In this document: positions 35,616 to 40,129 of the stretch, piece after piece | Layout: every line of letters begins with the position of its first letter | Numbering within the stretch: position 1 is the stretch's first letter | Source: a virus | Lineage: Duplodnaviria; Caudoviricetes | Virus record (IMG/VR): IMGVR_UViG_3300025659_000001 | Coordinates: 1 to 59,038 of that record | Reading direction: 5' to 3' (one strand) | DNA length: 59,038 nucleotides | Made by a program: the position numbers and the translations under genes | Notes under the pieces: generated by a model | What the model saw: the letters and a program-made list of their open reading frames with translations, nothing else | What the model was told of the DNA's origin: nothing | Database searches by the model: none

Positions 35616-35846
35616 ATGCCTGCCAAGAAACCTGCTGCTGAGATTACTATCTATCTCATGAACCTCAAACCTACGTTTTCCGAAACGACTGTTACCTCTG
35701 GTACAGTAGCTGAACTTCGCAAGGAGCTCGATTTAGGTTCTGACCAGTCTGTTAGCGTCAACTCAATCGTTGCTGCTGACGATGCATGTATCCGTGAAGG
35801 TGATCGTGTATCGGTGGTTAAGAAAAACAAGACTGGTGGTCAGTAG
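35616..35846 (+). CDS. Ubiquitin-like (beta-grasp) protein ending in GG-Q
   Basis: 76 aa from ATG 35616 (AAGGAGG RBS); TVAEL...VSVN...IREGDRVSVV beta-grasp signature; C-terminus KTGGQ. Confidence 0.88.
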   Translation: MPAKKPAAEITIYLMNLKPTFSETTVTSGTVAELRKELDLGSDQSVSVNSIVAADDACIREGDRVSVVKKNKTGGQ

Positions 35847-35866
35847 ACCTTGACTTGTTGAACATT

Positions 35867-35898
35867 ATAAGGGAGCCTTCGGGTTCCCTTATTTTTTT
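35867..35898 (+). terminator. Strong rho-independent terminator after the Ubl gene
   Basis: ATAAGGGAGCC-TTCG-GGTTCCCTTAT followed by a T-run. Confidence 0.85.
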
Positions 35899-35975
35899 GG
35901 CGTGTTCCTCTAGCATTCTCTAAGACCTAGCTGATATTGAGCTGGAAACGTGGGTACGAAATCCCACACACGCCA
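35899..35975 (+). ncRNA. Non-canonical tRNA-like RNA
   Basis: Acceptor GGCGTGT/ACACGCC+A; D-arm TCT/AGA; anticodon arm TAGCT-GATATTG-AGCTG; T-arm GTGGG-TACGAAAT-CCCAC. Lacks G18G19, U33 and TTC. Confidence 0.6.
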
Positions 35976-38484: not shown

Positions 38485-38507
38485 TTAACCTAAAAGGGAG
38501 GTGAAAT

Positions 38508-39443
38508 TTGTTTTTCATCGAGCGTAAAGATATGCGTCGTGTATTTGATTATGCACAAGAGACGTATAAGAAGTTCAAAACTGAAGTAGGCGGTATGATG
38601 GTCATCATGGAAGATAAGGATGGTGACTGGGTAGCTAGTGACCCTGTGATACTGAAACAGGAAGTAACTGGCGGTACTACTACTTTAGATGCTGATGCAC
38701 TTGCTGTGTATTATGGCAAGATGGCTGAGAAATATGGCAATAATGTCAGGTTTCTTTGGTGGCATTCGCATGGTGGTGGTAGTGTATTTTGGTCTAGTAC
38801 AGACGAGATAGCCATTAAAGAGTTCTCTGGTGGTGATTGGTCAGCTAGTTTAGTGGTCAACATTAAAGAAGAGTTCATCTTTAGGGTAGATTATTGGAGT
38901 CCATTCTATAAACGTATGGATAAGATGAAGTTATCCTATTTTGAACATGACGTTCCAAAGAAAGTCTTAACTGACATTGATAAGTTGGTGGCAGTAAAAA
39001 AGTACGAACAGAGCAATATAGCAGACAACCGCAACACGAATACTCGGAATACGGCTTCCACTCCAACGGTGAGCGAAGCGGACTTGGGGAATCGTGGCAA
39101 CGAGAGTTTGGGCCTTCTGCCCAACGAAATCTCTTCTGAGTCTGACCATACATTAGACCAAGATGCTGTTTGGCAATGGATGGATGAATTCATTGACCTG
39201 TATATTGCTGATGAGATGAGCTACAACAACTTGGAAGAGTGTGTGGGTCATATCAATACAATGTGTGATTCTCATGATACCATTCATCAGATTACACTTC
39301 CATCGAAAGACCGTATGAAGATTTACGTAGAGAAATCTGAAGTACCAAGTCGATGGGATTTCTTCACTTATCGTAAAGGTAAGGGAACAGAGGAGCAGAT
39401 GCAACTTGATGCTGATGCTGCTCAAAAGGAACTGACTACCTAG
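38508..39443 (+). CDS. JAB/MPN+ (JAMM) metalloprotease
   Basis: TEVGG glutamate and WWHSHGGGSVFWSSTD (HxH-x7-S-x2-D); TTG start with GGAGG RBS. Confidence 0.9.
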   Translation: MFFIERKDMRRVFDYAQETYKKFKTEVGGMMVIMEDKDGDWVASDPVILKQEVTGGTTTLDADALAVYYGKMAEKYGNNVRFLWWHSHGGGSVFWSSTDEIAIKEFSGGDWSASLVVNIKEEFIFRVDYWSPFYKRMDKMKLSYFEHDVPKKVLTDIDKLVAVKKYEQSNIADNRNTNTRNTASTPTVSEADLGNRGNESLGLLPNEISSESDHTLDQDAVWQWMDEFIDLYIADEMSYNNLEECVGHINTMCDSHDTIHQITLPSKDRMKIYVEKSEVPSRWDFFTYRKGKGTEEQMQLDADAAQKELTT

Positions 39444-40129
39444 TGAGTGATTTCCGAGAAAGATACAAGGATTTAGTAGACAACTTGGGGAGCTATACTA
39501 TTCACATTTTAGGATGTGGTGCTATTGGTTCTTCAAGTGGTCTACAACTTGTACGTATGGGTGCTGATAACCTACGACTCTACGATGATGATACAGTTGG
39601 CATTGAAAATGTTGGTGTATCTCAGTATGGTAATTCGCACATTGATTCTTATAAGGTTCACGCTTTACGAGAACTGATGCTTAACATTAATCCTGATGCT
39701 GAAATTGAGGCATTTGACAGACTTTTCACCCGCCGAGTGTATGAACCACAAGGCAATGACATTATAGTAATTGGATTTGATTCGATGTCTTCACGAGCTG
39801 AAGCTATTGATACAATAGACCGCTATAAGGATAAGCCCGTCTTATTACTTGATGGACGTATGGGAGCTGAACAATATCAGCAGTATGCTTTTACACCATT
39901 CAATGCTGAAGAATACTTAAAGACTTGGTATTCTGATGCTGATGGTGACCCTGAACCATGTACGGCAAAGGCTACTTCATACTGCTCAAATATGGCTGGT
40001 TCATTTATGACTAATGCTGTGAAAAAATTCGCTATTGGTCAACCACTTGAGACTGGCATAATGTTTCACTTCCCTTCCATGACGCTAGAGCTAGAGGGTT
40101 TTAATCCTCCTAATGCTTGTCAGCGTTAA
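39443..40129 (+). CDS. ThiF/MoeB/E1-family adenylating enzyme
   Basis: ILGCGAIGS, YDDDTV..EN, K, GFDS...R and DGRMG motifs; candidate catalytic Cys in EPCTAK. Confidence 0.92.
   Translation: MSDFRERYKDLVDNLGSYTIHILGCGAIGSSSGLQLVRMGADNLRLYDDDTVGIENVGVSQYGNSHIDSYKVHALRELMLNINPDAEIEAFDRLFTRRVYEPQGNDIIVIGFDSMSSRAEAIDTIDRYKDKPVLLLDGRMGAEQYQQYAFTPFNAEEYLKTWYSDADGDPEPCTAKATSYCSNMAGSFMTNAVKKFAIGQPLETGIMFHFPSMTLELEGFNPPNACQR

Follow-up and report, generated by a model that had tools for sequence, protein, structure and literature searches.

The window analysed here, a DNA stretch of 59,038 bases, comprises the whole IMG/VR virus record IMGVR_UViG_3300025659_000001 with its direct terminal repeats and is a complete phage genome. 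Between positions 35616 and 40129, its plus strand carries four co-oriented genes encoding a ubiquitin-like protein (Ubl), an 821 amino acid (aa) protein with a likely E2-like domain (designated X), a JAB/JAMM metalloprotease and an E1 enzyme of the minimal ThiF/MoeB type. It is rather probable that they form a phage-run ubiquitin-like conjugation cascade, the chemistry of which we infer. The four genes had been noticed in a reading of the DNA made without database searches (the sequence-only reading), which assigned them to a Ubl, an E2, a JAB and an E1. All four open reading frames (ORFs) are present on the plus strand at the positions given, and the assignments are supported by profile matches, invariant residues and an E2-like model of an X homologue.

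So far, prokaryotic Ubl-E1-E2-JAB sets have been described as bacterial anti-phage systems, namely the bacterial ISG15-like (Bil) system, type II CBASS (the anti-phage signalling system based on cyclic oligonucleotides) and Bub. If the proposal is true, phages use the same conjugation chemistry against or inside their hosts, and the targets would point to new steps of takeover or immune evasion. Full-text literature searches, with subscription journals and supplementary files outside their scope, found no paper that describes either a complete Ubl-E1-E2-JAB cassette encoded by a phage or the crAss-like block discussed below. In its available portions, PMC1779556 describes for phages the tail Ubl-JAB pair only; an Asgard virus preprint, as far as available, reports E1 homologues only, and the accessible parts of two Bil preprints make no mention of phage-encoded systems.

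Gene order in viral contigs

Three metagenome loci already displayed the same gene order. One of them, L004, comprises Ubl, a small ORF, X, JAB, E1 and a Sak4-like gene. A scan of IMG/VR with a JAB profile yielded 15 loci, and a scan with an E1 profile 274 contigs encoding an E1 relative. The best 80 of these 274 contigs were taken further, and the ORFs called in the loci were searched with purpose-built profiles. In total, 95 loci had any match; 74 were non-redundant in E1 or JAB sequence, and E1 was present in 71 of these. JAB is located upstream of E1 in all 67 loci with at least 1 kb of upstream DNA. X was found in 50 of the 51 loci with at least 2.9 kb, and Ubl by profile in 39 of the 44 loci with at least 3.6 kb upstream. 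Synteny in relatives, which the sequence-only reading had named beforehand as a refuting test, is thus kept in dozens of viral contigs.

There are some exceptions. The locus without an X profile match, L086, has a 791-aa ORF in that place that resembles the X of L032 by eye only. Among the five loci missed by the Ubl profile, L026, L032, L051 and L086 show, when inspected by eye, an ORF containing ...KTGG immediately upstream of X; the fifth is L027. In L015 (3693-7558) and L042 (3274-7139), the order is X-Ubl-JAB-E1. One sub-group has a conserved ORF of about 160-175 aa directly upstream of Ubl (L032 1963-2490, L086 2155-2643, L055 960-1445); the window lacks such an ORF in this position.

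A survey of prokaryotes, with one genome per species, covered 185,579 species. A close E1 relative was present in one metagenome-assembled genome (MAG) only, on two short contigs with 49-51% identity, and three further relatives were remote (33-35% identity). Since a single MAG in the survey holds a close E1 relative, the cassette can be considered essentially a phage feature, and it is shared by a large group of uncultured phages. In 50,697 phage records, blastn/tblastn searches with the region, X and JAB were without a match. Viral contigs were also pattern-scanned: X by itself and a 5-sequence X alignment retrieved nothing, while the scans with JAB and E1 profiles succeeded.

The four proteins of the cassette

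The sequence-only reading had described a 76-aa protein ending in KTGG-Q, an HPxI...C motif in the 821-aa protein, an intact JAMM motif and a ThiF/E1 enzyme with a candidate Cys. Each of these features was recovered, and the decisive residues are also kept in relatives: GG in 56/56 distinct Ubl ORFs, the Cys of X (C415) in 55/55 sequences, the JAMM motif in 67/67 and C173/C181 of E1 in 69/69. Conservation of these motifs in relatives is more than chance.

The Ubl gene (35616-35846, plus strand) encodes 76 aa with the end KNKTGGQ. ATG 35616 was taken as start rather than TTG 35529, because a Shine-Dalgarno-like AAGGAGG, read from the sequence, is located at 35603-35609 on the plus strand, 6 bases 5' of this ATG. 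Residues 1-75 end with G74-G75, and a one-residue cap, Q76 (codon 35841-35843), follows. In Pfam, the matches to ThiS-like (E 0.0072) and ThiS (E 0.023) are both below the cut-off. A weak ThiS match was also obtained with the Ubls of L004 and L005 (E 0.018-0.022), and the match was sub-threshold in three of three relatives tested. When a Ubl profile was compared with the PDB, ThiS (E 0.058) and MoaD (E 0.11) were the best matches. Across 38 aligned Ubls, no column other than G74 and G75 is invariant, and in the 56 distinct ORFs the GG occurs as K[TVKS]GG or NTGG. It is followed by no residue in 18 ORFs, by one in 11, by two in 6, by three in 6 and by four in 4; tails of 6-11 residues were found in 8 ORFs and tails of 31, 73 and 126 residues in one each. 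To judge from these sequences, an invariant GG with a variable tail of 0-126 residues is the pattern of a Ubl precursor trimmed by a peptidase. The assignment as a putative Ubl is supported by the sub-threshold ThiS/MoaD matches together with the invariant GG and the variable caps. The long-tailed Ubl genes are those of L005 (363-785, 73 further residues after GG), L076 (3198-3821, 126 residues) and L029 (3079-3393, 31 residues). The tail of the L005 Ubl shows a weak ParD-like Pfam match (E 0.011), and long tails might, once released, play a role in their own right.

Directly downstream of the Ubl stop codon and upstream of X, a consensus scan identified a strong terminator-like hairpin on the plus strand (35867-35900; hairpin 35867-35892 with an 11-bp GC-rich stem, then a T run). 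It is one of 22 terminator-like sites found in the region vs 9.5 expected. This hairpin could be a putative terminator or attenuator that results in more Ubl mRNA than enzyme mRNA.

The JAB gene (38508-39443, plus strand) encodes a protein of 311 aa with a catalytic domain in about residues 1-130. It contains E26 and the motif H86-S-H88-x7-S96-x2-D99 (38763-38804); E26, H86, H88, S96 and D99 are kept in all 67 distinct JAB relatives. As a single sequence, it matches Pfam Prok-JAB below the cut-off (E 0.0034), and it matches the JAB part of the PADLOC model of a fused E1-E2-JAB protein with E 5.9e-5. Using a four-sequence profile, the best solved relatives in the PDB are deubiquitinases, an Rpn11-like protein (E 6.3e-5) and CSN5 (E 0.004). 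The protein has no NlpC/P60 match in Pfam. Both the profiles and the invariant catalytic residues support its assignment as a predicted JAB protease. Loci in which Ubl lacks a cap (18 of 56 ORFs) retain JAB all the same, which suggests a second role as deconjugase.

The E1 gene (39443-40129, plus strand) starts in an overlap with the JAB stop codon and encodes 228 aa. Pfam ThiF (PF00899) gives one match (residues 10-120; E 3.2e-16) with 59.7 bits vs a cut-off of 28.1. In NCBIfam, ThiF ranks first (E 8.5e-21), below the cut-off of that model, and in PADLOC many Cap2-type E1-E2 models match, down to E 8e-14. An E1 profile that included two crAss-like sequences matched UBA5 (3.4e-17), ThiF (4.9e-16), Cap2 (2.4e-12), MoeB (2.7e-10) and BubCD (1.1e-7) in the PDB, and also UBA6 and MccB. 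By sequence, E1 has a Rossmann-type ATP site (GxGxxG; G24xG26xxG29 in the window), an Arg finger and an Asp for Mg; C173 and C181 are located in an EPC-x7-C motif. All 69 sequences compared share R7, G24, G26, G29, D48, K71, D113, R118, D137, R139, C173 and C181; the E1 relatives range in length from 214 to 288 aa. The profile match above cut-off and the invariant residues support the assignment as a predicted E1.

X (36019-38484, plus strand) begins with a helical region, carries an E2-like domain in its middle followed by four clustered Cys residues, and ends in a variable C-terminal part. It has no match in Pfam, PHROGs, PADLOC or NCBIfam. ESM Atlas provided no usable match, and the Atlas model of X has a predicted local distance difference test score (pLDDT) of 0.31. 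A HMMER scan of 1.84 billion representatives found 2 distant relatives only; word-indexed protein searches returned 3 proteins, then only the window's own protein. Since IMG/VR holds more than 50 relatives of X and these protein collections at most four distant ones, a blank in the collections is weak evidence for the rarity of a protein from uncultured phages. The relatives comprise 355-835 aa. A profile built from 52 X homologues, without the window and its nearest relatives, recovers window X over residues 362-737 (E 2.5e-22), so that the family assignment of window X is sound.

In window X, HPYI is found at residues 404-407 (HPY 404-406 at 37228-37236), followed by the candidate catalytic C415 (37261-37263), both on the plus strand. 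Every one of 55 non-redundant X sequences retains C415 and P452; W441 is kept in 96%, N454 in 95% and P405 in 91%. Just after the E2-like domain, the plus strand encodes the Cys cluster C484, C556, C559 and C565 (37468-37713), which is kept in 91-96% of the 55 sequences with the pattern C...C-x(2-4)-C-x5-C and may be a putative metal site for zinc or Fe-S. The idea that X might be a Cys-His enzyme of the papain-like or transglutaminase-like kind was considered as well and dropped: H449 is not conserved, and structure searches revealed no such fold.

The fold was modelled on the X protein of L068 (487 aa), the most central member of the family, using a 57-sequence family alignment. The resulting model has a pLDDT of 89.7 and a predicted template modelling score of 0.80. 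It begins with long helices; a further helix spans residues 131-155, residues 160-230 form a beta-meander, and a loop carries HP[YF] at 239-241; then come the invariant Cys257, helices at 259-286, an invariant P-x-N, further helices and the Cys cluster. In a Foldseek comparison with the PDB, about 35 of the top 50 rows were E2 or Cap2, with template modelling (TM) scores by target of up to 0.48. Independently of Foldseek, 48,161 representative chains were searched with VIA-align. For L068 residues of about 133-332, E2 or E2-related proteins make up most of the matches listed, among them UBE2O (Z 6.0), UbcH10 (5.8), Ube2K (5.6), Pex4 (5.4), UBE2E1 (5.4), UFC1 (5.3) and FTS (5.3). Two chains of the kinetochore KMN complex (Z 5.5), which we take to have the RWD fold, and one chain of a ribosome-UFM1 ligase complex (Z 5.5) are also listed. 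The remaining matches listed are helical bundles on L068 residues 31-127 or 379-459. When the Foldseek list was rescored with VIA, 86 of 683 chains reached Z of at least 5. The best 50 listed are all E2, with Z 5.2-6.4, a root mean square deviation of 3.4-6.9 and 123-159 residues aligned of cores of about 150 residues. In L068, about 47-53 residues separate the Cys from the point where the alignment stops, close to the 51-55 in UbcH10, Ubc13 and UbcH5. Based on this model, a UBC-like fold of the central domain (residues of about 135-325 in L068) is likely, not proven. The strong matches of the X model in BFVD are six viral proteins (E 4e-32 to 5e-15).

In alignment A12, C257 of L068 equals C415 of the window, and the predicted E2-like domain (L068 model 131-325) maps to residues of about 235-484 of window X (36721-37470, plus strand), with the N-terminal half of this range aligned loosely and interrupted by large window-specific inserts. 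A complex prediction for the L068 X with its Ubl scored 0.01 vs a mark of 0.32; it had no controls and weighs neither way. X was invisible to sequence libraries and found by fold only, so that similar E2-like enzymes may be hidden elsewhere.

Proposed cascade, rival explanations and known systems

The following steps, their order and a protein as acceptor are what we infer. The 76-aa Ubl would be made as a precursor, from which JAB would remove Q76 to expose Gly75. The small, probably dimeric ThiF-type E1 would adenylate Gly75 and may hold Ubl on Cys181 or Cys173. Thereafter, Ubl would be passed to Cys415 in the E2-like domain of X, and X would transfer it to an amino group of a target that is presumably selected by the long variable flanks of X. 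JAB could also take Ubl off the target again. As conjectural purposes of the tagging, the sequence-only reading had named host takeover, counter-defence or superinfection exclusion.

Several observations weigh against such a cascade. In sequence, Ubl and E1 are nearest to the sulfur-carrier pairs ThiS/MoaD and ThiF/MoeB, and E1 has no separate catalytic-Cys domain. No E2 sequence family (UQ_con, Prok-E2_A to E) matched X or the X of L004 at E up to 0.1 in Pfam, PADLOC and NCBIfam, and an X profile compared with PDB sequences gave only a chance match to HRas (E 0.67). AlphaFold2, applied to window X with a 5-sequence alignment, resulted in an unusable model (pLDDT 36.5). The evidence for the E2 fold comes thus from a homologue, the L068 protein, which is only 16% identical to window X. 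It is via this homologue that the UBC fold of the 821-aa protein, on which the sequence-only reading had made its proposal depend, found a UBC-like match, with Z at most 6.4; this falls short of the Z 8 that the tool sets as its caution line, under which a match may reflect a common arrangement only. In Foldseek vs the PDB, no row had E <=0.001, the best E being 0.38. The equivalence of C415 and the catalytic Cys of E2 enzymes would follow from topology and spacing of the model only, not from a residue-level superposition. H404 is present in only 80% of the X sequences, and H449, seemingly conserved in the first five sequences, is not so in the wider set. Finally, L055 (1375-3377) has the order Ubl-JAB-E1 with no X in between.

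The main rival, which we regard as unlikely, is a sulfur carrier system. Here, JAB would expose the GG and E1 would adenylate it, and the Ubl thiocarboxylate would donate sulfur to the modification of a nucleic acid or a small molecule, with X, by its invariant Cys and its cluster of four Cys residues, as the sulfur-using enzyme. The kinship of Ubl with ThiS/MoaD and the minimal ThiF/MoeB type of E1, for which NCBIfam ranks ThiF first, speak for it; the conserved Cys cluster of X could hold a metal or Fe-S centre, and ThiS/MoaD-JAB-E1 sets have been linked to sulfur assimilation (PMC1779556, in its available portions). However, among 49 ORFs of the genome scanned with Pfam, no sulfur-transfer or cofactor-synthesis family was found: cysteine desulfurase, rhodanese, PP-loop ATPase, ThiG, ThiH, MoaE and cysteine synthase all failed to appear, in agreement with the sequence-only reading, which had noted no gene for ThiG, MoaE or cysteine synthase. 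The sulfur might yet come from enzymes of the host. The middle domain of X looks like an E2 and not like any sulfurtransferase, and variable tails of up to 126 aa after GG along with a universal JAB are more typical of conjugation. In comparison with ThiS-ThiF and MoaD-MoeB themselves, the nearest sequence relatives, the phage proteins share the C-terminal GG and the minimal E1. They differ by the absence of ThiG/ThiH and MoaE from the phage ORFs and by the presence of JAB (67/67) and the E2-like X (50/51).

Two further explanations accept a link to ubiquitin-like chemistry and assign the four proteins other roles. A counter-defence role directed at host immunity of the Ubl type (Bil, type II CBASS, Bub), in which JAB would strip host conjugates and Ubl, E1 and X would serve as decoys or competitors instead of tagging targets themselves, appears decidedly improbable. 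Among defence models, E1 is nearest to Cap2-type E1-E2 (8e-14) and JAB matches the JAB part (5.9e-5); JAB is retained in 67/67 loci, even where Ubl needs no trimming, and the family is nearly confined to viral contigs (274 in IMG/VR vs one MAG), all of which would be in line with such a role. For a decoy, on the other hand, there would be no need to combine an invariant GG with both an intact ATP site and an unchanging Cys in X, and nothing links these phages to hosts with Bil or CBASS. Very improbable, in our estimate, is a conjugation by E1 alone with X as a non-catalytic adaptor or main substrate. Archaeal SAMP/UbaA and Thermus TtuB/TtuC provide a precedent, as E1 alone conjugates the Ubl there without E2. 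L055 with its lack of X between Ubl and JAB, the two invariant Cys residues of E1 and the only moderate E2 match of X argue in this direction. By contrast, X is found in 50 of the 51 loci with room for it, and the one Cys that it never loses is placed in the region of the E2-like active site; an adaptor would not be expected to keep a Cys in 55 of 55 sequences.

As a conjugation cascade, the cassette is most readily compared with Bil. BilA-D are encoded by four genes in the order Ubl, E2, JAB peptidase, E1 (PMC11601596, available portions), and the phage has the same four separate genes in the same order. Neither set contains an E3 gene, so that in both E2 is thought to choose the target, and JAB matures and removes the Ubl, in the phage cassette as a proposal. 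However, BilD has, according to the accessible part of the source, an IAD-AAD-CYS architecture with a mobile Cys domain, whereas the phage E1, at 228 aa, consists of one domain only, of the ThiF type. The phage Ubl and X are matched by no PADLOC model; X has long extra regions and the Cys cluster, and the phage Ubl is single, small, beta-grasp-sized and nearest to ThiS/MoaD. The cassette resides in a phage genome with terminal repeats and not in a bacterial defence island. By E1 architecture, sequence models and genomic home, it does not belong to Bil.

Type II CBASS provides the best PADLOC match of the phage E1 (E 8e-14) and, with the fused E1-E2-JAB model, a match of JAB; Cap2 structures are among both the sequence matches of E1 and the fold matches of X. 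In contrast to type II CBASS, the phage E2-like protein and E1 are encoded by separate genes and a dedicated Ubl is present. Because neither an E2-E1 fusion nor, in the 49 ORFs scanned, a CD-NTase (cGAS/DncV-like nucleotidyltransferase) was found, the cassette is not CBASS; an effector family was likewise not among these ORFs. Bub (6E/DUF6527) combines Ubl, E2, JAB and E1 modules, and its Ubl precursor is cut by a peptidase (PMC11601596, available portions). The module set is the same as in the phage, and BubCD is a weak PDB match of the phage E1 (E 1.1e-7). As described in these portions, Bub uses Ser/Tyr oxyesters without a catalytic Cys in E1 and E2, whereas the phage E1 and X keep invariant Cys residues. 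Since the Cys residues are kept and both a DUF6527 protein and fusions are absent, the cassette is not Bub. In phages, the I and K proteins of lambda/T1 tail assembly represent a Ubl, conserved in its C-terminal Gly, that is paired with an adjacent JAB-NlpC/P60 protein (PMC1779556, available portions). There, as far as this source is available, the pair belongs to a tail module and is accompanied by neither E1 nor E2; here, the genes are located in a replication block and JAB has no NlpC/P60 domain.

A related block in crAss-like phages and the genomic neighbourhood

E1 relatives with 29-34% identity are encoded in 76 phage records from crAss001-like Bacteroides phages, Flavobacterium Fpv phages and uncultured crAss-like phages. 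Most of the crAss-like homologues listed are annotated as 'thiamine biosynthesis protein'. This label is unlikely to be right, because the partners ThiG/ThiH and MoaE are absent and a JAB and an E2-like protein are present. Three upstream genes are conserved in four records (crAss001, Fpv3, cr85_1 and a bajarodcaudo virus). The block consists of four co-oriented genes beside primase and uracil-DNA glycosylase genes and corresponds to gp79-gp76 in crAss001 (L008, 1247-5657); the other coordinates are L002 2996-6711, L001 2538-6669 and L007 1610-5621. Protein 1 has 90 N-terminal residues that end in an invariant K-x-x-K-S-G-[AG], SGA in most, and are followed by a tail. Protein 2 (371-444 aa) carries an invariant YMHSH...C-x-G. 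Protein 3, a 'metalloprotease', is JAB-like (Prok-JAB E 2e-4 to 3e-3), and its comparison with the JAB family of the window by hhalign was weakly positive (E 8.5e-5, probability 60%). Protein 4 is the ThiF protein related to the window E1. The X model gave weak matches in BFVD (E 3e-3 to 1.6e-2) to proteins of a Podoviridae sp., a CrAss-like virus and the uncultured phage cr128_1. Because profile comparisons of proteins 1 and 2 with Ubl and X were not significant, the crAss-like block is regarded as analogous and possibly homologous, i.e. as a lead and not as a result. The crAss-like homologues offer a cultivable system for testing the idea.

From both blocks together, a broader proposal can be put forward tentatively, with a chance close to even and still short of it. 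A large clade of lytic phages would run its own Ubl tagging with a minimal E1, a giant diverged E2 that selects the target and a JAB that matures and erases the tag. Host or phage proteins would be modified in infection, gp76-gp79 of crAss001 would be of the same kind, and Ubl conjugation would be an offensive tool and not only a bacterial defence.

In the window, the cassette is located inside a plus-strand block for replication and recombination (about 32.8-48.3 kb) that encodes a Sak4-like ATPase, a primase-helicase, a Gam/Gp157-like protein and a phosphoesterase. The structural genes for the large terminase, a P22-like portal, an SU10-like major capsid protein and an adaptor are on the opposite strand. 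The sequence-only reading had placed the cassette in the 'early region'; its location beside the Sak4-like ATPase, primase-helicase and Gam-like genes stands, and an early expression is putative. On the minus strand, two long ORFs at 51665-59032 (2455 aa) and 48651-51665 (1004 aa) have no Pfam or PHROG match, and the same holds true for ORFs of 1278, 1075 and 738 aa on this strand. The genes at 40232-41761 were considered as members of the cassette and dropped, as L004 and similar relatives have the Sak4-like gene directly after E1. This stretch includes a plus-strand ORF of 191 aa (40528-41103), which lies outside the cassette in relatives. It shows faint radical-SAM-like matches (Fer4_12 E 0.053, phrog_1802 E 7.5e-4, viperin-like E 0.003) and is followed by a terminator-like hairpin at 41107-41128.

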